This document shows positions 2,227 through 19,717 of a DNA stretch of 32,000 bases, piece after piece (the stretch's first letter is position 1; every line of letters begins with the position of its first letter). The stretch lies in NCBI RefSeq assembly GCF_000014265.1, contig NC_008312.1, positions 1,410,001 to 1,442,000 on the forward strand. Reading direction: 5' to 3'. Source of the stretch: Trichodesmium erythraeum IMS101. GTDB lineage: Bacteria; Cyanobacteriota; Cyanobacteriia; Cyanobacteriales; Microcoleaceae. The notes below the pieces were generated by a model. That model saw only the letters and a list, made by a program, of their open reading frames with translations. It did no database searches and was not told the origin of the DNA. A program made the translations under genes and the position numbers.

Positions 2227-2706
2227 ATGGGGATATCTTTGAAAATTATGCTTAACACAATTGCAACTCAGATTAGAAAGTGGTTCTCAGCACCAGAGGT
2301 GAGTGCTCACTGTGATGGTCCTTGCGGTGTTTATGACCCTGCTTCTGCTCGCATTTACGCTGAAGCTGTATTATCTATGACTAAGAAAATTCTAGATCTT
2401 GACCCAAAAGCTGGAGATCATAAGACTGCTAATACCCTTTCTCGCTATATTGCAATTAAGGAAGAGCAAGCTCAGAAGACTAAGGAAGATTTGCTTATTC
2501 TCTGGACTGATTATTTTAAGCCTGTACATTTAGAAAAGTATCCAGACCTCCACGATACTTTTTGGAAGGCTGCTAAGTTATGCTCTGCTTGTAAGGTAGA
2601 AGTTAGTTTGGAGCATGCTACTGAGTTACTAGCTGCTGTGGAGAAAATTCACAATATGTTCTGGGCTACTAAGGAGCGGGATGTGACTTGGTACAAGGCT
2701 AGCTAA
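2227..2706 (+). CDS. sodN: nickel superoxide dismutase precursor
   Basis: Ni-hook motif HCDGPCGVYDP, with His at 2308-2310, preceded by a short pro-peptide. The true start may be the second ATG at 2248. Confidence 0.95.
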   Translation: MGISLKIMLNTIATQIRKWFSAPEVSAHCDGPCGVYDPASARIYAEAVLSMTKKILDLDPKAGDHKTANTLSRYIAIKEEQAQKTKEDLLILWTDYFKPVHLEKYPDLHDTFWKAAKLCSACKVEVSLEHATELLAAVEKIHNMFWATKERDVTWYKAS

Positions 2707-2712
2707 TTTTTT

Positions 2713-3084
2713 TTGTTTGAGGTGGTAGGTACAAGGTTGATACAAACAATTGATAATAAAGAATTATTGCTTTGGTTATTAAGGTTGCGCCAACGGTTTT
2801 GTGTCACAGGATTTTCTATGTTTCCTATACTTAAACCTGGAGATGAGGTTCTTGTAGATACAAAAGCCTACCACCACTGTGCTCCAGAAATAGGGGATAT
2901 GGTTGTGGCTGAACACCCTCATCGTCAAGAGTTAAAAATAATTAAGTGGGTTGCTTTTGTTGATGAAAAAGGTGACTGTTTTTTGGTCGGAGAAAATAAG
3001 GAAGAAAGTACCGATAGTCGTTCTTTTGGTTTGGTAAATCGAAAACGAATAATTGGTAAGGTAAAGAGCAAGTTTCCAACATAG
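2713..3084 (+). CDS. sodX: S26-type signal-peptidase-like NiSOD maturation protease
   Basis: Lies 7 nt downstream of sodN. S26 motifs GFSMFPILKPGDEVLVD and GEN...STDSRSFG are present. The TTG start is taken from the ORF track. Confidence 0.8.
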   Translation: MFEVVGTRLIQTIDNKELLLWLLRLRQRFCVTGFSMFPILKPGDEVLVDTKAYHHCAPEIGDMVVAEHPHRQELKIIKWVAFVDEKGDCFLVGENKEESTDSRSFGLVNRKRIIGKVKSKFPT

Positions 3085-4772: not shown

Positions 4773-6365
4773 ATGACTATAGCTATAGATTTCGGAACAA
4801 GTAATACTGTTATTTCTCGTTGGAATCAAACAACTAAACAACCAGAAATTGTCAAGTTACCAAATATCTCAATTCTTTCTGTGGAAAATCCGCCTTTAAT
4901 TCCTAGCTTAGTCTATGTGGAAAATGTTGCTGAAAAAAAAGTAGTAGTAGGTCAACAGGTTAGAGATAAAGGTTACGATGTTAATACGGAATCTAGATTT
5001 TTTCGTAATTTCAAACGGGGTATTGGTGCAAATGTTCAAGGATTTTTGCCGGAACTTGACGGTCAAATTGTTTCTTTTGAACAGGTAGGGAAATTGTTTT
5101 TAGAAGAAGTTGTAGCAGGTCTTCAGAAAGTGCCTTTGCCAGTAGAGTCTTTAATTTTTACTGTTCCAGTAGATAGTTTTGAAGCTTATCGAAATTGGTT
5201 GGGGGAAGTTTGTCAGTCTCTAGAGGTTGAACAGGTAAGAATGATTGATGAACCTACTGCTGCGGCTTTAGGTTATGGGATGGCAGATGCGGAAATTTTG
5301 TTGGTGGTTGATTTTGGTGGGGGAACTTTAGATTTATCTTTGGTAAGGTTGGATAATGTGATGGCAAAACAACCTTTGGGTTATATTCTGAAATGGGGTA
5401 AAAAATCTTATGGTAACAATTCAAGTCAAAAGGCAAGAACTGCAAGGGTTTTGGCAAAGGCTGGAGAGAATTTAGGGGGTTCGGATATTGATAATTGGTT
5501 GGTGGATTATTTTGTTAAGAGTCAAGGGATAGAAAAGAGCTCTTTAGTTACTCGTTTGGCAGAAAAGTTAAAAATTCAATTGTCTTTGCAGCAAGAGGGA
5601 ACGGAGGTTTTTTTTGATGATGAAAGTTTGGAAAGTTATGAGCTGGGGTTGGGGCGGGATGCTTTTGAGGAAATTCTCCGGGAAAATGGTTTTTTTGCTA
5701 GTCTTGATCAGTCAATGAGTCGGGTTTTACAGCAGGCAAAAAGACAAGGAATAGAGTTATCGGATATTGGTGCTGTTTTATTGGTGGGAGGAACGGTGCA
5801 AATTCCGGCGGTTCAGAGGTGGGTAAGGGAATATTTTGATGCTGGAAAAATTCGTTGTGAAAAACCTTTTGAGGCAATTTCTCAGGGAGCGTTGCAATTA
5901 GTTCAAGGAGTGGAGGTTAAGGATTTTTTGTATCACGGTTATGGTATCCGGTATTGGGATAGAAAGAAAAATGCTCATGGTTGGCATCCGTTGATTAAGT
6001 CTGGTCAACCGTATCCAATGAGTAGTCCTGTAGAGCTGGTTTTGGGTGCTTCTATGAATAGTCAACCTAGTATAGAGTTGGTTTTGGGAGAGTTGGGTGC
6101 TGAGTCTGCTGGTACAGAGGTTTTTTTTGATGGCGATCGCCTTATTACTCGGAAAGTTTCTGGGGAGCAAACTGCTGTACAACTTTTAAATGATAGAGAG
6201 GGAGGTCGTAGTATTGCTCAATTAAGTCCTTTGGGAAATCCGGGGAGGGATCGCATTAAGGTTTTGTTTTGGGTGGATGAGTCTAGGTTTTTGAGAATAA
6301 CGGTGGAGGATTTATTGACGAATGAAATTTTGTTAAATGAGCAGGCTGTTGTACAGTTGAGTTAG
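4773..6365 (+). CDS. Hsp70/DnaK-family ATPase-like protein (short form without a helical lid)
   Basis: Hsp70 NBD motifs IAIDFGTSNT, DEPTAAALGYG, VVDFGGGTLDLSLV and LLVGGTVQIPAVQ. At 530 aa it ends after a beta-rich domain. Confidence 0.85.
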   Translation: MTIAIDFGTSNTVISRWNQTTKQPEIVKLPNISILSVENPPLIPSLVYVENVAEKKVVVGQQVRDKGYDVNTESRFFRNFKRGIGANVQGFLPELDGQIVSFEQVGKLFLEEVVAGLQKVPLPVESLIFTVPVDSFEAYRNWLGEVCQSLEVEQVRMIDEPTAAALGYGMADAEILLVVDFGGGTLDLSLVRLDNVMAKQPLGYILKWGKKSYGNNSSQKARTARVLAKAGENLGGSDIDNWLVDYFVKSQGIEKSSLVTRLAEKLKIQLSLQQEGTEVFFDDESLESYELGLGRDAFEEILRENGFFASLDQSMSRVLQQAKRQGIELSDIGAVLLVGGTVQIPAVQRWVREYFDAGKIRCEKPFEAISQGALQLVQGVEVKDFLYHGYGIRYWDRKKNAHGWHPLIKSGQPYPMSSPVELVLGASMNSQPSIELVLGELGAESAGTEVFFDGDRLITRKVSGEQTAVQLLNDREGGRSIAQLSPLGNPGRDRIKVLFWVDESRFLRITVEDLLTNEILLNEQAVVQLS

Positions 6366-6501
6366 GGTAGGAGGCTGTTAGTTAGTGGCTGGAAAAAGAG
6401 GTTTTGGAGGGATTTTATTCAATATTATCCTTTTGTTTTAGTATTATATTTAACATAATAATTTAACATAATAATAAAGTTGATAATTGATTGAAAAAAA
6501 A

Positions 6502-8502
6502 ATGACTAATGAACTACCAAAAACTGATTCTCTAAAAAAAAAGGGTCGTATTTTTTCTCAAGATTCATGGGAAAAAATATCTTCTCCGGAAGAGTTTGAC
6601 GAATTAATACAAGTAGTTACTGTTAAAAACTGGCTGTCTTTTTCTATATTTGGTGGTCTAGTTTTAGTGGGTATTTTATGGAGTATTTTTGGTAAAATAC
6701 CTATTACAGTAACTGGAAAGGGGGTGTTAATTCGCCCTCGACAAGTGGTTACATTTCAATCAGCAATTGAAGGTAATTTAGATTCTTTGAAGATTAGAGA
6801 TGGAGAGTGTGTAAAAAAAGATGAGGTTCTGGCAACTATTAATCCATCTCAACTGAAAAAACAGTTAGAGTTACAACGACAAAAGCTATTTCTTTTTCAA
6901 ACTCAAGCATTAGATACTCAAAGGTTAGAAGGTCAACGGACTCAGTTAGAAGTAGATGGTCTGACAACTAAGGCTGAAGGTTTAAGGCAACGTTTGCGAG
7001 ATACTCAAAGTCTTACGCCTACTTTACAAAGTAATACTTTAGAGGCTCTCCGGGAAAAGGGTCAGACTTTGGAGCAACGTTTACAGGATATGCAGGCTGT
7101 TACTCCGAGATTAAAGGAGGAAAAATTACAGGAAATTAATAAACAACGAGTAAGTTTAGAAAAACGTTTGGGGGATGCTAAAAAATTAACTCCTGAATTG
7201 AGGGATAAAAAATTACAGGCGATCGCTGAACAAAAGATTACTCTGCAGGAAAGGTTACAAAGTGCTAAAAGTTTAACTCCTATTTTGCGGGATAAAAATG
7301 AGTTGGCATTGCAACAACAACGAGAAAGTTTAAAGCAACGTTTGAAAGATGCCCAAGAGTTAGTTCCGGTTTTTGAGCAGAGGCTAACAAAGCGCCAGAA
7401 GTTATTGGATGATGGTGCTATTTCTCAAGATAATTTATTACAAACAGAACAGGAGTTTAGGCAAAATTTACAGTCTATTGCTCAAATTAAAACTGAGTTA
7501 AAACAAGTAGAGGTACAGGAAGCAGAAACTGCAGAAAAATATTTACAAAATTTCAGTACTATTAATGAAATTGAGGATAAACTGAAGGATTTAGAAGTGG
7601 AGGAAGTTGAAACTAATCAGAGATATTTAGATAATGTTAATACTATTAGAGAAATTGAGGGTCAATTACAGGGATTAGATTCACAAACAACTGAAACTTC
7701 TAAACAATTTCTGGATAATCTCAATCAAATTAATGAGATAAAGGTGCAGTTACAGGAAGTTAAGTTGCAAGAAACTGAGGCTATGGAAAAGTTTTTGGAA
7801 AGTCAGAATATTATGGCTCAATTAAAGGTTGATTTGCTGGATTTAGAAACCCAGAAAAAACGTTTGGAACAAGAAAATTTAGAGGCGGCAAATACTCGGA
7901 AAAATCAAATAGAAGAAGTTAATCGAGAAATTGCTCAGTTAGAAAAACAGGTTGCAGATAATAGTAAAATTCTTAGTCCTGTAGATGGGTGTATTTTGGA
8001 AATTAAAGGCACTGTCGGACAATATGTAAGTCCTGGTACTGTTCTGGGTAAAATTAATGTTCAAGGAAGGTTATCAGGATTAATGGCAGTTAGTTATTTT
8101 CCTGTTAAAGATGGTAAAATGATTAAGTCTGATATGAAAATTACTATTACTCCTGATACTGTTAAACGAGAAAGATTTGGAGGAATTATTGGCAATATTA
8201 CTTCTATTTCTAGTTTTCCTGTGACTAAGGAAGGGGCAAGTTTTGTAGTAGGAAATCCAGAAATAGTAGAAAATATTATTGGGGAAAGTGGGGGGCAAAT
8301 TGAAACTTATGCTCAACTAAGAAAGGATGATAATACTTTCAGTGATTATCAATGGTCTTCTTCAAAGGGACCACAAAAAAAATTTACTGCGGGTACGACA
8401 ATAACAGCACGGGTAAGGGTTGAGGAAAGAGCGCCTATTACTTTTGTTTTGCCAATATTAAGGGAGTGGAGCGGGGTTTATTTATTTAAGTCTAAGTCTT
8501 AA
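6502..8502 (+). CDS. HlyD-family periplasmic adaptor (bacteriocin/NHLM-type secretion protein) with a repeat-extended coiled coil
   Basis: N-terminal TM segment (WLSFSIFGGLVLVGILWSIF), lipoyl-like segment, long coiled coil, and C-terminal beta-barrel (SPVDGCILEI...). ATG 6502 is preferred over the track's TTG at 6487. Confidence 0.9.
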   Translation: MTNELPKTDSLKKKGRIFSQDSWEKISSPEEFDELIQVVTVKNWLSFSIFGGLVLVGILWSIFGKIPITVTGKGVLIRPRQVVTFQSAIEGNLDSLKIRDGECVKKDEVLATINPSQLKKQLELQRQKLFLFQTQALDTQRLEGQRTQLEVDGLTTKAEGLRQRLRDTQSLTPTLQSNTLEALREKGQTLEQRLQDMQAVTPRLKEEKLQEINKQRVSLEKRLGDAKKLTPELRDKKLQAIAEQKITLQERLQSAKSLTPILRDKNELALQQQRESLKQRLKDAQELVPVFEQRLTKRQKLLDDGAISQDNLLQTEQEFRQNLQSIAQIKTELKQVEVQEAETAEKYLQNFSTINEIEDKLKDLEVEEVETNQRYLDNVNTIREIEGQLQGLDSQTTETSKQFLDNLNQINEIKVQLQEVKLQETEAMEKFLESQNIMAQLKVDLLDLETQKKRLEQENLEAANTRKNQIEEVNREIAQLEKQVADNSKILSPVDGCILEIKGTVGQYVSPGTVLGKINVQGRLSGLMAVSYFPVKDGKMIKSDMKITITPDTVKRERFGGIIGNITSISSFPVTKEGASFVVGNPEIVENIIGESGGQIETYAQLRKDDNTFSDYQWSSSKGPQKKFTAGTTITARVRVEERAPITFVLPILREWSGVYLFKSKS

Positions 8503-9000: not shown

Positions 9001-9309
9001 TTATGGCTTTTTATTGATTTTCTTACTTACCTTTTGAAGCTCACTTGATATTTTCTTAGTCATTGTTTTAAAATCAGCTTTGTTGAAGTTATTCTTAACT
9101 TTATTCCACTCATTATTAATTGTTTTCAAGTCAGCTTTGTTGAAGTTACCCTTAGCTTTATTCCACTCATTATTAATTGCTTTAAAATCAACTTTCTTGA
9201 GCTCATTCTGAACTTTATGCAGCTCATTATCAATTTTTTTAAAATCAACTTTCTTGAGCTCATCTTTAACTTTATTTAGCCCCTTCTCAATTTCGTTATA
9301 TTTAGTCAT
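9001..9309 (-). CDS. hypothetical Lys/Asn-rich protein built from 19-aa (57-nt) tandem repeats
   Basis: GGAG lies 7 nt before the ATG. The repeat I(D/N)NE(L/W).K.....K(V/A)D(F/L)K occurs 4 times; the DNA period of 57 nt is seen at 9101 and 9158. Confidence 0.6.
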   Translation of the reverse strand: MTKYNEIEKGLNKVKDELKKVDFKKIDNELHKVQNELKKVDFKAINNEWNKAKGNFNKADLKTINNEWNKVKNNFNKADFKTMTKKISSELQKVSKKINKKP

Positions 9310-9415: not shown

Positions 9416-9658
9416 TCAATGTGTACCATTAATCCATATTTCATGTTCACTTATATCAATTTCATCATTCCAAATAATTCCACTCCCTGATGGATCTATT
9501 TGAAAATTTTTGCAGAAAGCAAAGTTTTTTGGAGGAAAGAACGTTGGTTTGTTTAGTAATTTTTGAATATTATACTTTCTTGTTTTATGATTGGAGAAAT
9601 GTACTAACAAGGTGTAGTTATCTATTACTTGAGCTGATTTGATTTTGGGATAAAGCAT
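9416..9658 (-). CDS. DUF2442-family protein
   Basis: 80 aa. The pattern ...V.DNYTLLVHFSN...Y......L......F....F..F.IDPSG.GI.W..EIDIS matches my recollection of DUF2442. It is translationally coupled to the DUF4160 relic upstream. Confidence 0.7.
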   Translation of the reverse strand: MLYPKIKSAQVIDNYTLLVHFSNHKTRKYNIQKLLNKPTFFPPKNFAFCKNFQIDPSGSGIIWNDEIDISEHEIWINGTH

Positions 9659-9661
9659 AAT

Positions 9662-9921
9662 TTTTATTCGATAATTTATTTTTATGGTGGTAATTTTCTA
9701 AATTCTTGGGTATTCTTTGCAATAATTCTGTTTGATATATTGATGCCTATTCAATTACTATTTTTGTTGCTCTATTTGCTAAATCACCTTCAATAATTTC
9801 CCAGGTTTCTAGATTAAATAGAGGGTTATATTTTCCATAAATTGCATGAAAATGAGGAGGAGGATGATCTGCAAAAAATAATAATTTTGATAATTCCATA
9901 AAATCTGGAAACTTCAGGCAT
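9662..9921 (-). pseudogene. DUF4160-family gene inactivated by a frameshift and a premature stop
   Basis: ATG 9921 gives MPEVSRFYGIIKIIIF. The reading must then shift frame inside a T-run to continue ADHPPPHFHAIYGKY...ATKIVIE (the ORF 9747-9899). TAG at 9747-9749 sits where the family has Trp (..LEWA..), and homology (ASIYQTELLQ) continues after it. Confidence 0.7.
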
Positions 9922-9956
9922 TGGTTTGATTCTCAAAAGCAAATTCCCAAAAATAA

Positions 9957-10268
9957 TTATATTATTACTTGCTCATAAATTACCATTGCTTCCTGTAATA
10001 CCCGCAAAAGGCGAAAATAACGACTTAGATCTTTTGGAGTCCTCAAATCTACTACTCTTCCTAATAAATAATTTAATTCATCTTCTATTCTAATAATTGC
10101 TAAACCAGGAGTTTTTCCTGGCTCAAATTCTACTAAGATATCTATATCACTTTCAGTCGTAAAGTCATGCCGCAGCACTGAACCAAATAAGGATAATTTG
10201 CTAATATTATACTGCTGACAAATTTGATTAATTTCAGCTTTTTGTAAATCAATAGGTAAAGTTTTCAT
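9957..10268 (-). CDS. minimal nucleotidyltransferase (MNT-type antitoxin-like), no HEPN partner present
   Basis: Motif LSLFGSVLRHDFTTESDIDILVEF (GS...D.D polymerase-beta-fold NTase). Confidence 0.85.
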   Translation of the reverse strand: MKTLPIDLQKAEINQICQQYNISKLSLFGSVLRHDFTTESDIDILVEFEPGKTPGLAIIRIEDELNYLLGRVVDLRTPKDLSRYFRLLRVLQEAMVIYEQVII

Positions 10269-10321
10269 GTTTATTGCTAGTTAGATAAACTTCAGTTAAA
10301 AATTGGCAGCAAGAAATAGAG

Positions 10322-10660
10322 TCATAATGTTAATTCACTGACTACTAAAATAGATAACTCACGGACTTTTTTGAACTGTAAATCATTAGTTAAAAAAGCA
10401 TCACAATTAGACTGAATTGCTGTGGCAATTTGTAAAGCATCAGGTAATTTTAAATTATATCTAACCCGAATATCAGCAGCAATAAGAGCAGTCTCTGAAT
10501 TAATATCCACAAAATTAATTTTGTCTTGACTCGTCAGAATGTTAATAAATTGTTGTTGTACAGAGAGATTTTTTTGACTGGTTATATGGATTATTAGGAT
10601 TGCTAAATAATCGGAGCAGAATCTAAAAAATCCGATTTAGCTGTCCTAAAATTGTCTCAA
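10322..10660 (-). pseudogene. PIN-domain (VapC-like) toxin gene, frameshifted and without a start codon
   Basis: The C-terminal half is intact (ALIAADIRVRYNLKLPDALQIATAIQSNCDAFLTNDLQFKKV). The N-terminal FLDSAPII motif is readable only in another frame near 10600-10630. No ATG is present. Confidence 0.65.
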
Positions 10661-10681
10661 TTTTCTTTGAATTTAAACAAT

Positions 10682-10915
10682 TTATTGTTCTCGTTGTTGC
10701 CATTCTTGACGTAATTCCTTAACCCATTCTTGAGCATCTTTTCCCTCTAAGATATTAGGTAATATTCCTCGCAAATTACACAAACTATGTTTAGAGGTTT
10801 TGGGAATAGTTGTCTGACGCTTCAATTGTTCTGTAGTATAGGTAATGATTTGAAACTTTTCTTCTATAGTAAGCTGTTCAATTTCTTGTAATATTTTTGT
10901 TAATAAAGGACTCAT
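10682..10915 (-). CDS. putative antitoxin of the decayed PIN pair
   Basis: 77 aa. GGAGG lies 8 nt before the ATG at 10915. The C-terminal LRGILPNILEGKDAQEWVKELRQEW motif is typical of small cyanobacterial PIN-associated antitoxins, as I recall them. Confidence 0.55.
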   Translation of the reverse strand: MSPLLTKILQEIEQLTIEEKFQIITYTTEQLKRQTTIPKTSKHSLCNLRGILPNILEGKDAQEWVKELRQEWQQREQ

Positions 10916-11096
10916 TAATTTAACCTCCATAAATAGTCTAATTGGGGCTTGCTGATTAAATATAAAAGCATTGACATATTCTTAATATGTATATCTATTC
11001 TATCAACATTCCTCACAGGATTATCAACTGGTACCCTAATCACTACTAATACAGTTATGATTGATTCTAGACTAGAGTTGTAGTAGGTATAAAAAA

Positions 11097-12257: not shown

Positions 12258-13010
12258 ATGCCAAGAAAACCTCGGAATTTTCAAATTGGACACTCTTATC
12301 ACATTACGACTCGTTGTAATAACCGTGAATTTAAACTATCCAGGCGCGAATGTCGGGAAGTATTTCTTTATGCAATAAAAAAGGTTAGCACCAAATACAA
12401 TTTTCGGCTTTATGCTTTGTGCATTATGTCCAATCATGTTCATTATTTGATTGAACCGTTGCAACCAGAAGATTTACCAAAAATTATGCACTACCTCAAC
12501 TGGTACACAGCTATGTGTTTCAACAGAATGTTAAAACGTACGGGGCATTTTTGGGAAAAACGATATTACTGCAATGGGTTTCCTTCCTCAGATAGAGAAA
12601 GAGCATTGAATACTTTACGCTACATCCACGGTAATCCTAAAGCGGCCAAAATGCGTTGCGGCTTTTTCTATGATTTTAGTAACTATGGTAGCTACGAATG
12701 TTTGACTAATGATGGCCTGACTCAATGGCATCCGGCTTTCTTAGAGTTGGCCAATACTCTGGACCAATGTGCCCAGAAATATAAGGAATTTTGTAAGAAA
12801 TATAAGTCCAAACAAAAAGATTCGAGAAAGTGCCACTGGGGCAGCAAACTTTTAGGGGGTATTGTGCTGTCTTTTGATGGCCGAAATTCTCGCTCTGCTA
12901 AGAAGAAAAAGTTATCAACTCCTTTTGACTTTCCGCCGACGGTGATGCCAGACAATGAAGAATTAGCAAAGGTAGTTAGTCAATTTGTTGTAGCTAATAG
13001 ACCGAATTAG
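12258..13010 (+). CDS. IS200/IS605-like Y1 (HUH) transposase, RAYT-like
   Basis: HUH motif SNHVHYLIEP, catalytic Tyr region LRYIHGNPKAAKM, and N-terminal YHITTRCNNREF. Confidence 0.85.
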   Translation: MPRKPRNFQIGHSYHITTRCNNREFKLSRRECREVFLYAIKKVSTKYNFRLYALCIMSNHVHYLIEPLQPEDLPKIMHYLNWYTAMCFNRMLKRTGHFWEKRYYCNGFPSSDRERALNTLRYIHGNPKAAKMRCGFFYDFSNYGSYECLTNDGLTQWHPAFLELANTLDQCAQKYKEFCKKYKSKQKDSRKCHWGSKLLGGIVLSFDGRNSRSAKKKKLSTPFDFPPTVMPDNEELAKVVSQFVVANRPN

Positions 13011-13081
13011 CAGAAAAAAAAAATGTAATACCTAGGTTTTAGCTTTAGTTCATAGTTCAGTTCTTTTAAACTATTTCCCCT

Positions 13082-13136
13082 AAGCAAGCAAAAGAACTTT
13101 TCATAGTTCTTTTGCTTGCTTGGACTCCGTTTTTTT
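13082..13136 (+). terminator. perfect 17-bp stem hairpin followed by a T7 run (terminator or REP-like hairpin) downstream of the transposase
   Basis: aagcaagcaaaagaact (13082-13098), loop tttcat, agttcttttgcttgctt (13105-13121), then ggactccg and ttttttt. Confidence 0.6.
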
Positions 13137-13228
13137 GATATTTTTATGAATTTGTTCATCACAAATCCCAACAACTTTTCCCAAAAACTAGCATTGTTTA
13201 ATTCGTACAAGAGAAACGGTGTAAATTT

Positions 13229-13317
13229 TAGGACTTACGCAACGGCACTATGTATAGTAGCAATATCTTGAAAATGATATTTTTTGGCACCATATATAGC
13301 GGTACTGCGTAAGTCCT
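13229..13317. repeat. 88-bp element bounded by imperfect inverted repeats about 26 bp long (REPIN/MITE-like)
   Basis: aggacttacgca...tgcgtaagtcct is a perfect 12-bp inverted repeat, and the arms extend imperfectly. The related termini aggacttac/gtaagtcct occur again at 21946-22124. Confidence 0.5.
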
Positions 13318-13350
13318 GTTAGTTTAAATTCCTCGAGTAGAACAGAACAG

Positions 13351-13499
13351 ACATCCTGTGGCACAACTATGCCAACTGACGAGTTACCAACTGCCTAAAC
13401 AACCCCTCCTGTGCCATCAACTCATCAAACCTTCCCTTCTGCACAACTCCCCCCTAGAGAGACATCACATAAATAACATCGGCGTTCCTCGGCGTTCCT
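13351..13499 (-). pseudogene. duplicated fragment of the exporter 3' end (last 40 or so codons plus stop)
   Basis: About 95% identical to 14427-14572. It carries a 3-nt insertion that creates an in-frame TAG (VMSL*GGVVQKGRFDELMAQEGLFRQLVTRQLA*). Confidence 0.9.
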
Positions 13500-13664
13500 A
13501 GGCGGGGGTGCCAGGTAACAAATAAAGAATGTGAAAAAGGGCTTATGTTTAATGTTATGTATACAATAACCCTTAGGGTTCTACCAATAACCCTAGTTTT
13601 GGTTCCTTCTCTTTTTATTTTTTCTTCATTCCTTTCAACTGGAGTTGTTCTCAAGTTACGCTCT

Positions 13665-13763
13665 CTAATTATTAAGTTCCTCAAGTTCCTCGTAGTGGGC
13701 GGCGTCGCCCGGTTGCGAGGTTTCGGTTTTTGGTTTTTTGGTCATTGCGTTCATGGCGTTCAT
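13665..13763 (-). CDS. candidate small ORF (32 aa) MNAMNAMTKKPKTETSQPGDAAHYEELEELNN
   Basis: AAGGAG lies 6 nt upstream of the ATG. It sits in a local GC-rich island within an AT-rich region, on the same strand as the exporter. No homology was recognised. Confidence 0.3.
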   Translation of the reverse strand: MNAMNAMTKKPKTETSQPGDAAHYEELEELNN

Positions 13764-14240
13764 GGTCAACTCCTTTGTTTTTTTTGTTTTTGGTTTAGCG
13801 TTCTGCTAATAGCATAGCATTTCTTTTGTTTTTTTTGTGGCGTTTTAAAGTTTTATTAATTAATAGTATTCATATTACAGTTAGTTAATCTAATCTGTAT
13901 TCATAAGTTTTATTAATCTAATCTGTATTCTTTCGTTATTTTGTATTTCGCTGCGCGGCTATTTCCTCCCCTAGTGTAGCCGTTCCGAGTCGAGAGTATG
14001 TTTGTTTTCGATTTTGTCTGGATTTCGTCCGCGTTCGGTGGTTGGGTTGCATTGTGTTATGTCTTCTCTCCCACCGCGTTCGCGTAAAATCTTAATTATA
14101 AATCTTCGTTGAATATAGAAAAAAAGAGAAACCTTGATGTGTATGGTCAAATTGTCTAAGCAAATAGACCCTCAAAGTGGGGAGGAAAGGATTTTTTTGC
14201 TTTCCCTTCCTGTCGTTTTTATTTCGACAACTGGCTCGTT

Positions 14241-14360
14241 TTAACGCCAACCACCTTGCGCCAAAAAACTTGCGTAGTAACTATTCCAGTAACCACCCGA
14301 CCAGCGTTCCATTTGGGTGCAGCCGGCCGGAGCGCCATAGCCACCACAAATTTCCTCCAA
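14241..14360 (-). CDS. candidate double-glycine-type peptide (possibly a 5'-truncated relic): LEEICGG / YGAPAGCTQMERWSGGYWNSYYASFLAQGGWR
   Basis: It begins 82 nt downstream of the exporter stop on the same strand, in a GC-rich island. A leader-end-like LEEICGG is followed by a Gly/aromatic-rich 32-aa core. There is no ATG: only TTG at 14360, with an in-frame TGA at 14385-14387. Two other frames are also open here. Confidence 0.3.
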   Translation of the reverse strand: MEEICGGYGAPAGCTQMERWSGGYWNSYYASFLAQGGWR

Positions 14361-14442
14361 TTTGTGAGTTCCTATTCTTTTCTTTCAATTATTTACTGCT
14401 TTATTTTTTTTAATTGTTTCTCTTATACATCAGTGCCATCAA

Positions 14443-17400
14443 CTATGCCAACTGACGATTTACCAACCGCCTAAACAACCCCTCCTGTGCCATCAACTCA
14501 TCAAACCTTCCCTTCTGCACAACCCGCCCCTGAGACATCACATAAATAACATCCGCGTTCCTAATAGTACTCAAACGATGAGCAATAACAACCCTGGTCA
14601 CATTCAACCGCTCCAAACTCTCAGTAACGATCGCCTGAGTTTTATTATCCAAAGCACTAGTCGCCTCATCCAACAAAATAATTTTCGGCTGCAATATCAA
14701 CGCCCGAGCAATTAACAACCGTTGTCGTTGCCCCACGGAAATATTACCACCTCCCTCACTCACTATTGTATGCATCCCCATAGGCATTTTCTCTATATCA
14801 TCAGCAAAACCCACCTTCTGAGCGGCCTCCCATGCTACCTGTGGACTTACCAACTCACCACTACTAATATTTTGATAAATACTACCCGTGATCACCTGAC
14901 CATTTTGCAGCACCACCCCTAATTGTTGTCTAACTGCCTCCAAGTCTAATTCAGCCAAATTTTTACCATCATAAAAAATACTTCCGGTTTGTGGTTGCTC
15001 AAACCCCAACAACAAACGAAACAAAGTAGACTTGCCACTGCCAGAGGGGCCCACAATAGCAACAAATTCTCCTGGTTTAACTTCCAAACTAATATTATGG
15101 AGTACAGTCACCCCATTAAATTGTGGGAGATTTTCTTCAGTTTTGCCAACTATTAATTTAGACTTTTGATGATAACTAAAAGTCAGATTATCAATAGAAA
15201 TATGACCTTGTAATTTTCCGGGGTGAGCCAAATTAGGATTATATTCAATAGGAGAATCTAAAATACTTTTAGCTCTTTCCCACAAAGGCACAATACCAAT
15301 AACATCAGTAATAGTATCACTCAAAGAAGTTACTCCACCAAGAAACACACCCATGGCAGAATTAAAAGCAATAAATGTACCAATATTTAAACCAGGAGTT
15401 CCGGTCTGAGCCGCAGAAATAATAATCTGAATAGCAAACCAATAAATCACAATAGAAGTCACCAGAGAAACCACTTCATTAATGACAGAAATAATATCGT
15501 TTATCTGAAAAATCCGATTATTAAGTTGAATTTGAGGTTGAAACTTTTTACCCCAAACTGCAAAAGCTCTAACTTCTGCAGCCGCAACTCGTAATTTTTG
15601 AATCCCATTGATGAGCTCTACAGTTAAACCTTGAATTTTCCCGCTCAACTTTTCTTGTTCCCGTTCAAAACGAATTAAAATTATTCCAGAAATCAAAGTA
15701 ATGAGGAAAGAAATTACACCAACAATTAAAACTATTAAAGCTAATTTTTTGCTATAGACAAACATTAAACCCAAATTTAACAGAGAAAATAACCCAGTAA
15801 AAATAGTCGTAATTACAGCACTATTAACCAAACCACTAATCTGACTTATCGCAGCAATACGAGTTAATAAATCTCCCAAACTAAATTCCCGGAAAAAAGT
15901 TGGGTTGAGCCGAAAAAGACGGTCATAAATTCCAGATTGTAAATTAATTTGCATTCCCTGAGAAACCTTAATAGACATTATGCCTTGGAGCAAACTAAAC
16001 AAAGATTTTCCTACAGTAACAGCAAGTAAACCCAGTGCTATTTGCCATAATAATAATTTGTCACTATCAGGAATAGCATTATTAATAAGAATGGCACTTG
16101 CCTGAGGAGTAACCATACCCATCAGACTGATTATTGTGCCTAAAATCATTACTTTTATTGCATCCCATTCATAACCTTTGATGGCAAATAAAAATATATC
16201 CCAAACCTTTTTAACTTGGATGGGAAAAGGGCGATAAAAAGTAAATGCTGTTGATGATAAAGTAGCAGCTACATTTTGATTTATAGGAATAGAAGTTTGA
16301 GTCTTTGGGTTGTAGAGAAAATATTGATTATTCTTAGGTAATAAAGCCACGGGTAAATTTTCTAATTTCAGCCAACCCAACAAAGCACCAGAATTTTTTT
16401 GCCACCATTTATCTCTGAGTTTTACTTCCCGAATTCGACAACGTGAAGCTCTAGCAATTTCTTGTAAATATATTTGATAATCAGCAGGAGATTGTTTTTC
16501 TGGGATAGTATTTTGGAAATTTTTTCTTTGTGTAAGTGGTGGTTTAATTTCTATCTGACTAGCACGACCTATTGCTCCTACTGCGGCTAATAATAAGTCA
16601 TTAAAATCAGAGACCAAAGAGTTAGTTGTTTTTCGATTATATAAAACAGAAACAAAATTTTGCATAGTTTCTGCTTGACTGCGTTGATTATAGGTTTTGA
16701 GTCGTTGAGAATTGAAAATTTCTGTTTGTTCCTCAGCCAAAATAACTTGGTGGAGATAATTGCAAAAATTATTATTAATTGAAACAATTTCCGAAAAATT
16801 AGGAAGCTCAGATTTTCCAAAAGATGGCAAAGAAAAATCTTTTGGTATTGAGTCAACAGATTCATCTATCAATTCCAAATTTTGAATTTTGGCTTTTGAA
16901 TTTTGACTTTCCCAAAGGTAGTTTAACCATTTTTCTACTAGAGAACCAGACAAACTCTGGAAATCTTCATTTAAATCTGTATTAGCAAGATTAATCTGAA
17001 TTAATTCAGCTTTTTCCAAAGCAATTCCCAATAATTTGCCTTGAGTCTGAGCATCGGAATTAAAAATTAACTCTCCCTGTTTAACCGTAAATAAATAATG
17101 ACGATTTCCGATTAATTCTCCATCTAATTCCAGAGAATAAAATATTTCCACAGCTCCAGATTTTACGAACCAGATAATTTGGGGGAATTCAAAAATTAGA
17201 GGTTGATTACCCTCCAAAAAATAATATTTTGTTTTACTGTCTAAATTAGCCAATAACCGAGTAGAAACCAGAGACTTTTCAACAATATTTTCCCCTTTTA
17301 TTTCTCTATTTATTCCCAACTCTTGATACCTTAGTTCAGGCAAAATATCCTGCCTAAAATCTTGACTCCCTTCTTCCATCTCCAATAATTGACGATAATA

Positions 17401-19596
17401 AACACCCTGATGCCAAAGTTGTTGATGAGTACCTCTTTCTAATACCTTTCCTTCTCTTAAAACAATAATTTCATCACAATCTCGAATTGTACTTAAACGG
17501 TGGGCAACCACAATACAAGCACAACCCCGACGACGTAAATTCTGATCAATAACTCTTTCAGTTTCCGCATCCAAACTACTCGTTGCTTCATCTAAAATTA
17601 AAATCCGAGGATTATTTACTAAAGCTCTAGCAATTTCCAAACGTTGTCTTTGACCACCCGATAAATTCACCCCACCTTCCAACAAATTAGCATCATAACC
17701 ACCAGATAAACTGATAATAAATTCGTGAATATTTGCATCCTTACAAGCCTGAGTCAAAGCCGAATTACTAATAGTTGGATTCCATAAAGTTAAATTTTCT
17801 CGAATTGTACCTTCAAATAAAGATATATCTTGTGCCACCATAGCCACCGACTTTGTTAAAACAGAACGAGGAATTTCTTGACGGGGAATATCATCAAATA
17901 AAACTTCTCCTAATAATGGTTGATATAAACCGCAAACTAAATTAGCAATAGTAGATTTTCCAGAACCACTTTTTCCCACCAAAGCAACTCTTGAACCAGG
18001 ATTAATCAACAAATTAAAATTGACAATTAATGGAGGCTTTAAAGGATTATAACCAAAAGTAATATCTCTAAGTTCAACTTTACCTTTTAATGGAGAATAT
18101 GGAATTAATAACCCGTTCGGAGCATTTTTTTTATCATAAAATGTCAGTTGTTCCAAATTATTTCCGGCTTCAACAACAGAATTTTCTACATCATTTTCTA
18201 CTGCTTCAGTAATTTCAATATCTTCATCAAGAGGATTATCCAAAACATCATCAAGACGTTCCAAACTTGCCTCCAACTCTTGTAAACTACTGGCAAAATT
18301 GATTAATTTGCCCAGAGGATTCAAAAAACCAGAAGCTACAGTTTGAAATGCCACTAACATCCCAATACTCATGTCTCCTGCCATAACCGTTAAACCTCCC
18401 AAAACCAAAATTATTGCAGAAGAAAGAGTACTTAAAAATGTTGGTAAAAGAGTTAAAATTTGAGTTTGAATATTTAATTTTTGTTCCTCATTCATCACCT
18501 GAGAATATATCCCCAAAATCCGGGAAAACATATAAGATTCTAAACCCCCCGCCTTGAGACTTTCAATTGCTCCTAAACTACCCAAAAGATAACCAGACAA
18601 TTTACCTTTTTTTTCGCTCAAATTCAAAGTTGCCTCAATCCGAAATTGTCGAAGCCAATATAATGCTGCCACATTAATCAAACCAAAAACTATAGTAATT
18701 CCAGCTAAAACTCCATTATAAAAACTCATTAAAACAGCATAAAATACCAACATTATCGTATCAATAAAAGTATTTGCAACCTGACTCAATAATTGTACAG
18801 TTGTGTCATTTAAAGCAGCCCGAGAACTAATATCTCCAGTAAATCTTTGGGCATAAAAATTCATAGGTAATCGTAACAGATGCCACATAAACTTACTATT
18901 CATAGTAATTGAAAGTTTAATAATTAACTTCCGCAAGAAAATATATTGCATCCTAGCAATAGTAAATTGTAGAATCGTAGTTACCGCCATTCCTACAAGT
19001 AAAGGACGGAGCCAACCTTGCAAACCCTCCACTAAAACTTGGTCAACAAAAACCAAACTAAAAGCCGGAATAATTAAACGAATTAAACTGAGAAAAAAAC
19101 CAGTAATAAAAGTAAAAACCAGAGCATTTTTCGAGTTTTGTAAACGAACTGCTAAATAAGCAATAAAATTTCTTTTTTTTCCTCCTTTAACAAACTCTTC
19201 CCCCGGTTCCATCTGCAAAACAATACCACTGTAAGATTGAGCAAATTCTTCCTTACTAACCTTGCGCCTACCCAATGCCGGATCATTCAGATAAGCAAAC
19301 TTTTTATCAAAACCTTCCACTACCAAAAAATGATTAAATTTCCAAAAAATAATCACAGGTAAATCAATTTCTTCTAAAAATTCAACGTTACTTTTTCCAC
19401 CCTTAGCTGTCAAACCATATTCCCTTGCCGTTCTGACAATTTGTCCGGCATTAGTACCATCTCGACTCACACCGCATTTACTGCGCAACTCCATTAAAGG
19501 AACTTGACGCCCATAATATTTCAGAATAATACCCAAGGATGCGGCGCCACATTCAGTAGCTTCTCTTTGTAAAAAAGGTTTTGTTTTTACTCTCAT
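14443..19596 (-). CDS. fused double ABC exporter: C39 peptidase-TMD-NBD, then cNMP-binding-like domain-C39-like domain-TMD-NBD (1,717 aa)
   Basis: C39 Cys (QREATECGAASLG) and His (NHFLVVEG). Two Walker A motifs (GKSGSGKST, GPSGSGKST), two signature motifs (LSGGQRQR, ISVGQRQR), and two Walker B motifs. The ATG at 19596 has AAGGA upstream and is preferred over the track's TTG at 19674. Confidence 0.95.
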   Translation of the reverse strand: MRVKTKPFLQREATECGAASLGIILKYYGRQVPLMELRSKCGVSRDGTNAGQIVRTAREYGLTAKGGKSNVEFLEEIDLPVIIFWKFNHFLVVEGFDKKFAYLNDPALGRRKVSKEEFAQSYSGIVLQMEPGEEFVKGGKKRNFIAYLAVRLQNSKNALVFTFITGFFLSLIRLIIPAFSLVFVDQVLVEGLQGWLRPLLVGMAVTTILQFTIARMQYIFLRKLIIKLSITMNSKFMWHLLRLPMNFYAQRFTGDISSRAALNDTTVQLLSQVANTFIDTIMLVFYAVLMSFYNGVLAGITIVFGLINVAALYWLRQFRIEATLNLSEKKGKLSGYLLGSLGAIESLKAGGLESYMFSRILGIYSQVMNEEQKLNIQTQILTLLPTFLSTLSSAIILVLGGLTVMAGDMSIGMLVAFQTVASGFLNPLGKLINFASSLQELEASLERLDDVLDNPLDEDIEITEAVENDVENSVVEAGNNLEQLTFYDKKNAPNGLLIPYSPLKGKVELRDITFGYNPLKPPLIVNFNLLINPGSRVALVGKSGSGKSTIANLVCGLYQPLLGEVLFDDIPRQEIPRSVLTKSVAMVAQDISLFEGTIRENLTLWNPTISNSALTQACKDANIHEFIISLSGGYDANLLEGGVNLSGGQRQRLEIARALVNNPRILILDEATSSLDAETERVIDQNLRRRGCACIVVAHRLSTIRDCDEIIVLREGKVLERGTHQQLWHQGVYYRQLLEMEEGSQDFRQDILPELRYQELGINREIKGENIVEKSLVSTRLLANLDSKTKYYFLEGNQPLIFEFPQIIWFVKSGAVEIFYSLELDGELIGNRHYLFTVKQGELIFNSDAQTQGKLLGIALEKAELIQINLANTDLNEDFQSLSGSLVEKWLNYLWESQNSKAKIQNLELIDESVDSIPKDFSLPSFGKSELPNFSEIVSINNNFCNYLHQVILAEEQTEIFNSQRLKTYNQRSQAETMQNFVSVLYNRKTTNSLVSDFNDLLLAAVGAIGRASQIEIKPPLTQRKNFQNTIPEKQSPADYQIYLQEIARASRCRIREVKLRDKWWQKNSGALLGWLKLENLPVALLPKNNQYFLYNPKTQTSIPINQNVAATLSSTAFTFYRPFPIQVKKVWDIFLFAIKGYEWDAIKVMILGTIISLMGMVTPQASAILINNAIPDSDKLLLWQIALGLLAVTVGKSLFSLLQGIMSIKVSQGMQINLQSGIYDRLFRLNPTFFREFSLGDLLTRIAAISQISGLVNSAVITTIFTGLFSLLNLGLMFVYSKKLALIVLIVGVISFLITLISGIILIRFEREQEKLSGKIQGLTVELINGIQKLRVAAAEVRAFAVWGKKFQPQIQLNNRIFQINDIISVINEVVSLVTSIVIYWFAIQIIISAAQTGTPGLNIGTFIAFNSAMGVFLGGVTSLSDTITDVIGIVPLWERAKSILDSPIEYNPNLAHPGKLQGHISIDNLTFSYHQKSKLIVGKTEENLPQFNGVTVLHNISLEVKPGEFVAIVGPSGSGKSTLFRLLLGFEQPQTGSIFYDGKNLAELDLEAVRQQLGVVLQNGQVITGSIYQNISSGELVSPQVAWEAAQKVGFADDIEKMPMGMHTIVSEGGGNISVGQRQRLLIARALILQPKIILLDEATSALDNKTQAIVTESLERLNVTRVVIAHRLSTIRNADVIYVMSQGRVVQKGRFDELMAQEGLFRRLVNRQLA

Positions 19597-19717
19597 TTTT
19601 TTTTCCTTAATTTTTTTTATTTGTGATAGAGATATAGCTAATAAAATATCAGCCTTCCCTTTCAACTTCAGCAAAATATATTGTCAAAATACGACTATGA
19701 TATAAAAGTACGCTTAT

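Follow-up and report, generated by a model that had tools for sequence, protein, structure and literature searches.

A single gene of Trichodesmium erythraeum IMS101 very probably specifies an ABC exporter with a peptidase domain, of heterodimer type but made as a single chain, that belongs to the NHLP/Nif11 ('NHLM') family for bacteriocin export. Judging from its predicted protein, a peptidase-ABC subunit (TIGR03796, ABC1) and a peptidase-less ABC subunit (TIGR03797, ABC2) are genuinely joined in one covalent chain. The fusion is real but not new, because the same gene was described in 2011 and many other bacteria carry such a fusion. At the start of the second half we find a CRP-like β-barrel, which, according to its structural model, most likely has a regulatory or ligand-binding role rather than that of a canonical cAMP/cGMP sensor. 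Coordinates refer to the window, i.e., the whole 32-kb stretch of DNA that was analysed (Table 1).

Results

One reading frame holds two half-transporters

The minus-strand ORF (14443 to 19674) has no internal stop. The family N-terminus (..RVxTPTxLQMEAxECGAAALG) favors initiation at the ATG at 19596, which gives 1,717 aa, over a start at the TTG further upstream (19674). At the ABC1/ABC2 junction the frame is a straight read-through (...YYRQLLEMEEGSQDF...).

TIGR03796 (NHLM_micro_ABC1) spans aa 5 to 738 with 1003.8 bits against a cutoff of 853.3. Residues 1 to 739 alone cover model positions 2 to 709 of 710, i.e., a full-length equivalog match. The C39 domain carries the motifs ECGAAS (aa 15 to 20), NHFLVV (aa 88 to 93), and LNDPA (aa 103 to 107). 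ECGAA, NHFLVV, and LNDPA, together with the predicted catalytic Cys16 (19549 to 19551) and His89 (19330 to 19332), are near-invariant across 121 aligned sequences. NBD1 has a Walker A at aa 541 to 549 (nucleotides 17950 to 17976), a Q-loop (VAQD, 587 to 590), the signature LSGGQ at aa 645 to 651 (nucleotides 17644 to 17664), a Walker B with its Glu (665 to 673), and an H-loop (697 to 702). The N-terminal half is, on these matches, predicted to be a complete TIGR03796 subunit with the Cys/His C39 peptidase intact.

In the second half, TIGR03797 (NHLM_micro_ABC2) spans aa 1000 to 1716 with 879.8 bits against a cutoff of 709.4, and residues 740 to 1717 alone cover positions 2 to 686 of the 686 in the model, again a full-length equivalog match. 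NBD2 comprises a Walker A at aa 1516 to 1524 (nucleotides 15025 to 15051), a Q-loop (VLQN, 1562 to 1565), a signature at aa 1619 to 1625 that reads ISVGQ and not LSGGQ, a Walker B with its Glu (1639 to 1647), and an H-loop (1671 to 1676). At both ATPase sites, Walker A and Walker B match the consensus, and the catalytic Glu and the H-loop are retained.

The C39-like domain of this half was identified only through structure prediction and Foldseek. Its top match was 3ZUA, 'A C39-like domain' of HlyB (E 7.7e-5, TMq 0.52, TMt 0.58), and further matches included HlyB/D (7SGR), ComA, LahT150 (6MPZ), and PCAT1 (4RY2). Pfam gave no PF03412 match in the second half, phmmer of the region against PDB sequences returned nothing relevant, and no conserved Cys or His was found in the domain. 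In an hhalign comparison, the N-terminal C39 profile and the profile of this domain matched in register but weakly (E 0.044, probability 1.2%), and the His segment was deleted in the alignment; we did not count this as stand-alone evidence. The low-complexity stretch before the domain is shorter than in the Nostoc and Planctomycete homologues, which have ~60 extra residues there. Taken from sequence and model, the C-terminal half appears to be a complete TIGR03797 subunit, whose cytoplasmic N-region would consist of a CRP-like β-barrel followed by a dead C39-like domain.

Table 1. Features of the fused exporter gene and its adaptor gene, in window coordinates
Feature	Coordinates	Strand	Residues	Remarks
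Whole fused gene	14443..19596	(-)	1,717 codons	stop at 14443-14445; predicted single-chain NHLM-type peptide exporter, ABC1-linker-ABC2
C39 double-glycine peptidase domain, predicted active	19198..19581	(-)	6-133	PF03412, E 2.5e-34
Transmembrane domain 1	18313..19119	(-)	160-428	PF00664, E 1.7e-23
NBD1	17383..18021	(-)	526-738	PF00005 (ABC_tran aa 526-673), E 1.3e-30
Inter-half linker	17230..17382	(-)	739-789 (~50 aa)	low-confidence/disordered, then short helix
CRP/FNR-effector-like β-barrel and long C-helix	16873..17229	(-)	790-908	AlphaFold2 pLDDT >90
Low-complexity stretch and long helix, barrel to C39-like domain	16597..16872	(-)	909-1000	model helices 138-169, 195-246
C39-like domain, predicted catalytically inactive	16180..16596	(-)	1001-1139	model pLDDT 82.6
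Transmembrane domain 2	15337..16152	(-)	1149-1420	PF00664
NBD2	14446..15102	(-)	1499-1717	PF00005 (ABC_tran aa 1499-1647)
HlyD-family adaptor NHLM_micro_HlyD, Tery_0894	6487..8502	(+)	671 aa	TIGR03794, 323.7 bits vs cutoff 156.2

The architecture agrees closely with the original prediction, which had been made from the letters alone. It had described an uninterrupted minus-strand ORF holding two complete half-transporters with no stop at the junction, and both TIGR models scored above their cutoffs over a frame with zero internal stops. The first half that it proposed (a C39 peptidase with Cys and His, an ABC membrane domain, and NBD1) is matched throughout by PF03412, PF00664, PF00005, and TIGR03796. 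Its second membrane domain and NBD2 were likewise recovered by PF00664, PF00005, and TIGR03797, and the second C39-like region, for which it saw no obvious catalytic Cys, corresponds to the 3ZUA-like fold devoid of conserved Cys and His. Its Walker A positions lay within one base of ours. For the NBD1 signature, the end base was identical and the start lay three bases lower than the one found here.

The fusion is conserved, probably recurrent, and probably translated as one chain

More than 120 protein clusters, of cyanobacterial and Planctomycete origin, share the open junction, and the fused full-length homologues measure 1,480 to 1,875 aa. The closest cluster (P0001) is 97% identical, represents 138 metagenomic member sequences, and has an open junction with the same linker. 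Homologues from Dapis, Okeania, and a Trichodesmium MAG are fused and full length at 70 to 83% identity, and those from Nostocales (~45%) and Isosphaeraceae (~36%) are all full length as well. JGI names fused database proteins with both family names, and such fusions are common in public databases.

Elsewhere the two halves are separate neighboring genes, which often overlap. HlyD, ABC1, and ABC2 are colinear and split in Desulfobacter, Acidobacteriaceae, Legionella, and Aetokthonos. In split loci the order is ABC1 then ABC2, with the ABC1 stop and the ABC2 start at the linker position, 2 to 9 nt apart or overlapping. In a search with the N-region of the second half, only ~6 of the best 150 cluster representatives (50% identity) exceeded 1,200 aa; most of these 150 relatives were split ABC2 proteins of 850 to 1,000 aa. 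The original prediction had proposed to look for a stop and start at the junction of orthologous loci; the junction is open in the fused homologues and marked by a stop and the next start in split loci. Its statement that the two ABCs are adjacent separate genes also holds for many other genomes.

This prevalence of split relatives at the 50%-cluster level, and junctions so short that a single base change could merge the genes, would be expected if the single ORF were a sequencing or assembly error, or an inconsequential strain-specific loss of a stop codon, with two half-transporters really being made. We give this explanation practically no credence. An assembly artefact is rejected because the open junction is kept in independent assemblies, and a strain-specific loss is contradicted by the same open junction in the 138-member cluster, in Dapis, Okeania, and the Trichodesmium MAG, and in the wider set of fused clusters.

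A second alternative accepts the fused ORF but holds that two polypeptides are still made, through an internal start near Met740 (17377 to 17379) or proteolysis of the linker, and that they assemble as a non-covalent heterodimer. The N-terminal part of the linker is indeed predicted to be disordered (pLDDT <50 at residues 1 to 31 of the AlphaFold2 model), and the linker differs in length and sequence between fused homologues, so that the junction alignment is gappy and variable. Moreover, an in-frame ATG with GGAG directly upstream stands at the old gene boundary. However, no spacer separates the GGAG from the ATG, which would be poor geometry for a ribosome-binding site, and translation begun at 19596 meets no stop before the end of the full chain. 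In a rough tree, at least nine clades contain fused forms. This recurrence speaks for several independent fusions and against one 'recent' event, and it suggests that the covalent link as such is either tolerated or favored by selection. We consider two separate products unlikely and favor the single chain.

The second half begins with a predicted CRP-like barrel

The predicted barrel shows the eight-stranded β-barrel and C-helix of the CRP/FNR effector fold. Its best 34 Foldseek matches were CooA, Vfr, CRP, CLP, and Thermus thermophilus CAP (E 7e-6 to 4e-5, prob 1.0, TMt 0.33 to 0.65), with CprK further down. Sequence methods behaved differently from the model. PF00027 (cNMP_binding) had no match in the whole protein at E ≤ 0.1, nor in isolated aa 740 to 1049 at E ≤ 10, where Pfam returned only a chance MOV-10_N match; it was equally silent in nine relatives (eight split ABC2 proteins and one fused Nostoc protein). 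An hhalign comparison of the family alignment with E. coli CRP found no similarity (probability 0.1%). The family barrel keeps an invariant Trp/Gly/Arg/Leu signature of its own.

In CRP and PKA, the cNMP phosphate-binding cassette lies between β6 and β7 and consists of a short helix, Gly-Glu, and Arg-Ser/Thr-Ala. No such cassette was found in the barrel: the β6-β7 loop, N846 to Q852 (NSDAQTQ), has seven residues, is helix-less, contains no Glu or Arg, and is not conserved across the family. The kinship of the barrel to cNMP-binding domains is, in the model, a resemblance at the level of fold only. Of the 'cNMP-binding-like β-barrel' originally predicted, the fold is therefore borne out by AlphaFold2 and Foldseek and the PF00027 assignment is not. 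The further proposal of a nucleotide-sensing module between the halves found no support in PF00027, in the comparison with CRP, or in the loop.

Could the barrel nonetheless be a true cyclic-nucleotide sensor that gates export on cAMP or cGMP? Among the structures that share its fold are cAMP-bound CRP, Vfr, and relatives of these, and the 2011 description likened the domain composition of the peptidase-less transporter to that of the CAP_ED-bearing long type (PMC3140520). Against this stand the silent profile, the lack of similarity to CRP in the hhalign comparison, and the short, unconserved loop. The matched structures also include proteins in which this fold holds other ligands, namely heme, chlorophenolacetate, or c-di-GMP. 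HetC points the same way. The domain of cNMP type that precedes its C39 domain is recognized by Pfam and needed in vivo. In thermal-shift assays this domain was not significantly protected by cAMP or 2-OG, but GDP, GTP, and above all ppGpp did protect it (PMC10986499). A cyclic-nucleotide sensor is, in our view, very unlikely.

The locus includes a convergent HlyD gene

The HlyD-family adaptor gene Tery_0894 lies 6 kb away on the opposite strand, convergent with the fused ABC gene; Okeania and a Trichodesmium MAG keep the same convergent layout. The two genes are separated by toxin-antitoxin-like genes, a GNAT, and a RAYT transposase. Six-frame regex scans of the 32-kb window found no double-glycine leader motifs and no NHLP or Nif11 precursor ORFs, and an Rfam scan of the window returned nothing. 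The nearby 'precursors' reported for this locus in 2011 are probably toxin-antitoxin genes.

Discussion

Previously, Wang, Fewer and Sivonen (PLoS One 2011) chose this locus, with hlyD Tery_0894 named as the marker, to exemplify the "group VII" bacteriocin clusters. They stated of its large protein that it "appears to be a direct fusion" of both ABC transporters (PMC3140520). The coordinates given for Tery_0895-0898 in Table S3 of that paper equal those of the window ORFs plus 1,410,000, and the window spans 1,410,001 to 1,442,000 of CP000393. Group VII is defined by a short-type C39 ABC fused to a peptidase-less ABC, plus HlyD, and the present gene has this makeup at the identical locus. The fusion was thus already known for the same gene, and the novelty implied by the original prediction does not stand. 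Whereas the fusion itself is the same in both descriptions, our analysis adds the fold-level CRP-like barrel and the dead C39-like domain, the occurrence in Planctomycetes, evidence of several independent fusions, and a doubt about the 'precursors'.

The three-gene NHLM transport cluster TIGR03794/TIGR03796/TIGR03797 was defined by Haft, Basu and Mitchell (BMC Biol 2010; PMC2887384). Like the split cluster, the present locus has both halves above equivalog cutoffs, an HlyD (TIGR03794), and the order ABC1 then ABC2. It differs in that both ABCs are encoded by one ORF and joined through a ~50-aa linker, that HlyD is distant and convergent, and that the regex scans of the window found no NHLP/Nif11 precursor. 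PCAT1 from Clostridium thermocellum (PDB 4RY2, 6V9Z) and ComA, which by sequence rank among the nearest bacterial relatives of solved structure (E about 1e-98), share the C39 peptidase, the six-helix membrane domain, and the NBD. Those proteins are homodimers with two active peptidases, whereas here a covalent heterodimer would combine one active and one dead domain with a CRP-like domain. HlyB (PDB 3ZUA, 7SGR) resembles the second half in having a C39-like domain that lacks the catalytic Cys, and it works with an HlyD-type adaptor, as the present protein would. In the HlyB homodimer, however, the C39-like domains bind uncleaved RTX substrates, while here the dead domain would stand in cis with an active C39.

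HetC of Nostoc PCC 7120, a 'long type' PCAT, has the same order as the second half (CRP-type effector, C39-type domain, membrane domain, NBD; PMC10986499). PF00027 recognizes its effector domain, and HetC has an active C39 domain; the barrel here goes unrecognized by Pfam, and the C39-like domain is predicted to be inactive. Eukaryotic full-length ABCB transporters (P-glycoprotein, ABCB4, Ste6) were the top PDB sequence matches because both halves match. They too are single chains arranged as membrane domain-NBD-linker-membrane domain-NBD, but they lack the peptidase domain as well as C39-like and CRP-like domains, and the fusion events are unrelated.

We infer that the fusion arose when the stop between adjacent, translationally coupled ABC1 and ABC2 genes was lost, so that the short intergenic stretch would have become a flexible linker and the halves would be fixed at 1:1. 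The partners of the exporter would be Tery_0894, as HlyD-type adaptor, and a channel in the outer membrane. The active C39 domain would cut double-glycine leaders, and the inactive C39-like domain may, as in HlyB, dock the substrate and leave it uncut. The two membrane domains, alternating with the energy of ATP, would then expel the peptide. A bolder proposal, which we hold only tentatively and think more probably wrong than right, is that the Pfam-invisible barrel senses a non-cyclic ligand (ppGpp/GTP as in HetC, or the leader peptide) and thereby allosterically gates the dead C39-like domain, and that the ABC1-ABC2 fusion arose independently many times because export needs a strict 1:1 ratio of the cutting half and the docking/sensing half.

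As a discovery the fusion carries little weight, given its publication for the same gene and the public annotation with both family names. A caution follows for annotation, as "cNMP-binding" labels on such transporters rest on fold resemblance alone. As a natural single-chain heterodimeric leader-cleaving exporter of fixed stoichiometry, the protein could suit structural study of how an active C39 and a dead C39-like domain cooperate, and it offers a system for studying what the CRP-like module senses.

The two halves in one chain

The original prediction placed both halves of a C39/NHLM-type peptide exporter in a single polypeptide, and the sequence bears this out. No stop interrupts the minus-strand ORF 14443..19674; counted from ATG 19596, which suits the family consensus N-terminus better than an upstream TTG in the homologue alignment, the fused protein has 1,717 residues. 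Whole NCBIfam models fall on aa 5-738 (TIGR03796, NHLM_micro_ABC1; the peptidase/permease/ATPase half, ABC1) and aa 1000-1716 (TIGR03797, NHLM_micro_ABC2; the peptidase-less permease/ATPase half, ABC2). Scored alone, the halves reached 1003.8 and 879.8 bits against curated equivalog cutoffs of 853.3 and 709.4, respectively. As predicted, the junction (...YYRQLLEMEEGSQDF...) reads through without a stop.

Features of the fused protein (residues) and of the surrounding window (nucleotides)
Feature	Position	Strand	Source
Peptidase_C39 (sole Pfam copy)	aa 6-133		Pfam
ABC_membrane, first	aa 160-428		Pfam
ABC_tran, first	aa 526-673		Pfam
ABC_membrane, second	aa 1149-1420		Pfam
ABC_tran, second	aa 1499-1647		Pfam
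NHLM-type HlyD adaptor	6487..8502	+	TIGR03794, 323.7 bits vs cutoff 156.2
Tery_0895	9001..9309 (CP000393 1419001..1419309)	-	Table S3, PMC3140520
Tery_0896	9416..9658 (CP000393 1419416..1419658)	-	Table S3, PMC3140520
Tery_0897	9747..9899 (CP000393 1419747..1419899)	-	Table S3, PMC3140520
Tery_0898	9957..10268 (CP000393 1419957..1420268)	-	Table S3, PMC3140520
REP-associated tyrosine transposase (RAYT)	12258-13010	+	

Fused proteins of full length (1,480-1,875 aa) turned up in more than 120 of the 5.8 billion protein clusters searched; the closest of these clusters (97% identity) represents 138 metagenomic sequences. Identity was about 83% for fused Trichodesmium and Dapis proteins, 44-61% for those of Chrysosporum, Crocosphaera, Nostoc, Brasilonema and Calothrix, and about 36% for those of Planctomycetes (Isosphaeraceae, Aquisphaera, Paludisphaera). 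Genome contigs of Dapis, Okeania hirsuta and one Trichodesmium MAG also carry the single ORF. With the same fusion in so many clusters and in the contigs of several genomes, it is hardly credible that the ORF is an assembly artefact. Many homologues are named in the JGI annotation with both family names joined.

Separate adjacent genes for ABC1 and ABC2, the arrangement that the original prediction gave for Nif11/NHLP-type systems, were found in Moorena, Aetokthonos, a Xenococcaceae MAG, an Acidobacteriaceae MAG, Desulfobacter vibrioformis and Legionella rubrilucens. At several split loci the ABC1 stop lies 2-9 nt from the ABC2 start or overlaps it. When orthologues are aligned across the junction, the fused forms show a variable, gappy linker in an unbroken chain, and the split loci a stop and a start. 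Two separate polypeptides, produced by internal initiation or linker cleavage, are unlikely. Only about six of the best 150 50%-identity representatives matching the N-region of the second half have fused length, most of the others being ABC2 from split loci, 850-1,000 aa long. Therefore, from the cluster survey, the contigs and these representatives, the split state is the commoner one and the fusion a conserved minority, not an artefact. A rough tree built from the ABC2 part by neighbour joining spreads the fused proteins over at least nine clades amid split ones, a pattern only suggestive of repeated fusion or fission.

Prior description of the locus

The definition of the three-gene transport cluster TIGR03794/03796/03797 goes back to Haft et al. 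(2010; PMC2887384), and a classification of cyanobacterial bacteriocin clusters to Wang, Fewer and Sivonen (2011; PMC3140520). According to the latter, group VII derived from group V through domain fusion, and the transporter without a peptidase shares its domain composition with the long type, which bears CAP_ED; their group VII example (Figure 2) comes from T. erythraeum, the hlyD of that cluster being Tery_0894. After subtraction of 1,410,000, the Table S3 coordinates of Tery_0895-0898 equal window ORFs exactly, with identical lengths and strand. The window therefore corresponds to CP000393 1,410,001-1,442,000 and the fused gene is the one described in 2011, so that the fusion is already known for this very gene (PMC3140520).

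The group VII 'precursors' listed there, Tery_0896-0900 (9416-10930, minus strand), match DUF2442 and nucleotidyltransferase (NTP_transf_2); their sequences also suggest a PIN fragment and a protein of DUF4160 type. Judged by these resemblances they are probably toxin-antitoxin-type genes, and none of them has a double-glycine leader. Tery_0895 encodes a very basic protein of 102 aa that matched no family; within its gene, 9056-9283 consists of four 57-nt (19-aa) units in tandem, with the pattern 'KADFK..INNEWNKVK.NFN'.

The barrel and the second C39-like domain

The AlphaFold2 model of aa 740-1160 (58 homologues used, mean pLDDT 80.9) begins with a disordered linker, after which come a beta-barrel with a long helix (aa 790-908, pLDDT >90), a low-complexity/helical stretch and an alpha/beta domain (aa 1001-1139). 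The first 34 PDB matches of the barrel are all CRP/FNR-family effector domains (Foldseek; E about 1e-5, probability 1.0); they are CooA, Vfr, CRP, CLP and T. thermophilus CAP, and CprK appears lower in the list. On this modelled structure, the cNMP-binding-like fold is thus real. Family-conserved residues in the homologue alignment are W809, G814, F819, R832 and L835.

The claim that the module senses nucleotides was not supported. PF00027 matched neither the fused protein, even with the isolated barrel segment at E<=10, nor nine relatives, and a profile-sequence comparison of the family with E. coli CRP by hhalign gave no similarity. The phosphate-binding cassette of CRP and PKA sits in the beta6-beta7 connection. 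In the barrel this connection is a helix-less 7-residue loop (NSDAQTQ) that is not conserved across the family and lacks the Gly-Glu...Arg-Ser/Thr-Ala motif. Without a PF00027 match and this cassette, membership of the cyclic-nucleotide-binding family was rejected, and a true cAMP/cGMP sensor is very improbable. Of the original interpretation, therefore, the fusion and the folds hold, whereas nucleotide sensing is not supported. The ligands of the matched structures are as diverse as heme, chlorophenolacetate, c-di-GMP and cAMP, so the fold is no guide to the ligand. In the cyanobacterial exporter HetC, the domain at the same position is essential and, unlike our barrel, recognised by Pfam; in vitro it is stabilised by ppGpp and GTP, but not by cAMP or 2-oxoglutarate (PMC10986499).

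A subgroup of fused proteins of about 1,480-1,540 aa (e.g., P0040, P0043 and P0049; Nostoc, Dendronalium) misses the barrel region entirely: little separates NBD1 from the segment that immediately precedes the C39-like domain. Thus, the barrel is dispensable in some lineages.

Modelled separately, aa 985-1150 (pLDDT 82.6) best matched the HlyB C39-like domain in the PDB (3ZUA, E 7.7e-5; Foldseek), followed by HlyB/D, ComA, LahT150 and PCAT1. The family alignment contains no conserved Cys or His in this region, in agreement with the original prediction, which saw no obvious catalytic Cys in its second C39-like region. The stretch joining it to the barrel is ~60 residues shorter in this lineage than in Nostoc and Planctomycete homologues.

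ATPase sites

A motif survey found Walker A, Walker B with the catalytic Glu, and the H-loop kept in both NBDs. The predicted Walker A coordinates lie within one base of ours; the predicted signature range shares our end base but starts three bases lower. Across fused homologues the Q-loop glutamine is often replaced in NBD1 (aa 587-590; VDSE, VDER, VDDQ) and invariant in NBD2; the window protein keeps both. Its NBD2 signature (aa 1619-1625) reads ISVGQ, where most relatives have LSGGQ or LSSGQ. Such deviations may indicate functional asymmetry of the two ATP sites in the family. With ATPase motifs largely intact in both NBDs, the asymmetry is chiefly one of accessory domains, with an active peptidase in one half versus a dead one plus the CRP-like barrel in the other.

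Genomic neighbourhood and substrate

The HlyD gene lies 6 kb from the fused gene and is convergent with it. Its product has 671 aa against 421 positions in the family model; the surplus is a series of coiled-coil repeats (…L(T/V)P.L….L…), implying an unusually long periplasmic hairpin. An Hsp70/MreB-like ATPase gene (530 aa, 4773-6365, plus strand) ends 120 nt upstream on the same strand, and the two may form one operon; tblastn found no homologue of this ATPase in the examined flanks of related fused or split loci. Farther away, the nickel superoxide dismutase gene sodN (2227-3084, plus strand) is immediately followed by an S26-type maturation peptidase gene (sodX-like), an ordinary pairing.

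Between HlyD and the fused gene lie GNAT acetyltransferase and RAYT genes and small genes of toxin-antitoxin type (DUF2442, a nucleotidyltransferase and, judged from sequence, a PIN fragment and a DUF4160-like gene). After the RAYT gene, about 1.4 kb (13000-14440) holds no convincing gene and contains short tandem and inverted repeats (e.g., 13230-13317, 13885-13940). The RAYT, repeats and toxin-antitoxin genes suggest that mobile DNA was inserted here. At 13364-13489, 1.08 kb downstream of the fused gene, is a 126-nt copy of its 3′ end (14440-14562; last ~39 codons plus stop), about 96% identical with one 3-nt indel, which looks like a scar of insertion or rearrangement at that end of the gene; the gene's own C-terminus still agrees with the family consensus. 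The Trichodesmium MAG shares both features of this layout, cbiD-guaA divergent from the fused gene and HlyD convergent with it; Dapis shares the former and Okeania the latter. HlyD, ABC1 and ABC2 are colinear at most split loci, HlyD being elsewhere in Moorena and Roseofilum. Six-frame regex scans found no double-glycine leader motif in any ORF or frame of the window; the substrate is therefore probably not encoded nearby.

Proposed mechanism

The fused protein is most likely a single-chain heterodimeric peptidase-containing ABC exporter. Its domains stand in the corresponding order, the C39 catalytic residues are intact, the second C39-like domain is dead and both ATPase sites are of consensus type; the adaptor is a cognate HlyD type and the fusion is conserved. 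The fusion could have arisen by stop-codon loss between translationally coupled genes. Gly-Gly leaders would be cut by the N-terminal C39 domain, with the substrate docked by the dead one, for which HlyB, its best fold match, is the model. Export would proceed via HlyD and an outer-membrane channel, and the CRP-like barrel may regulate the exporter through a ligand that its fold leaves unspecified.
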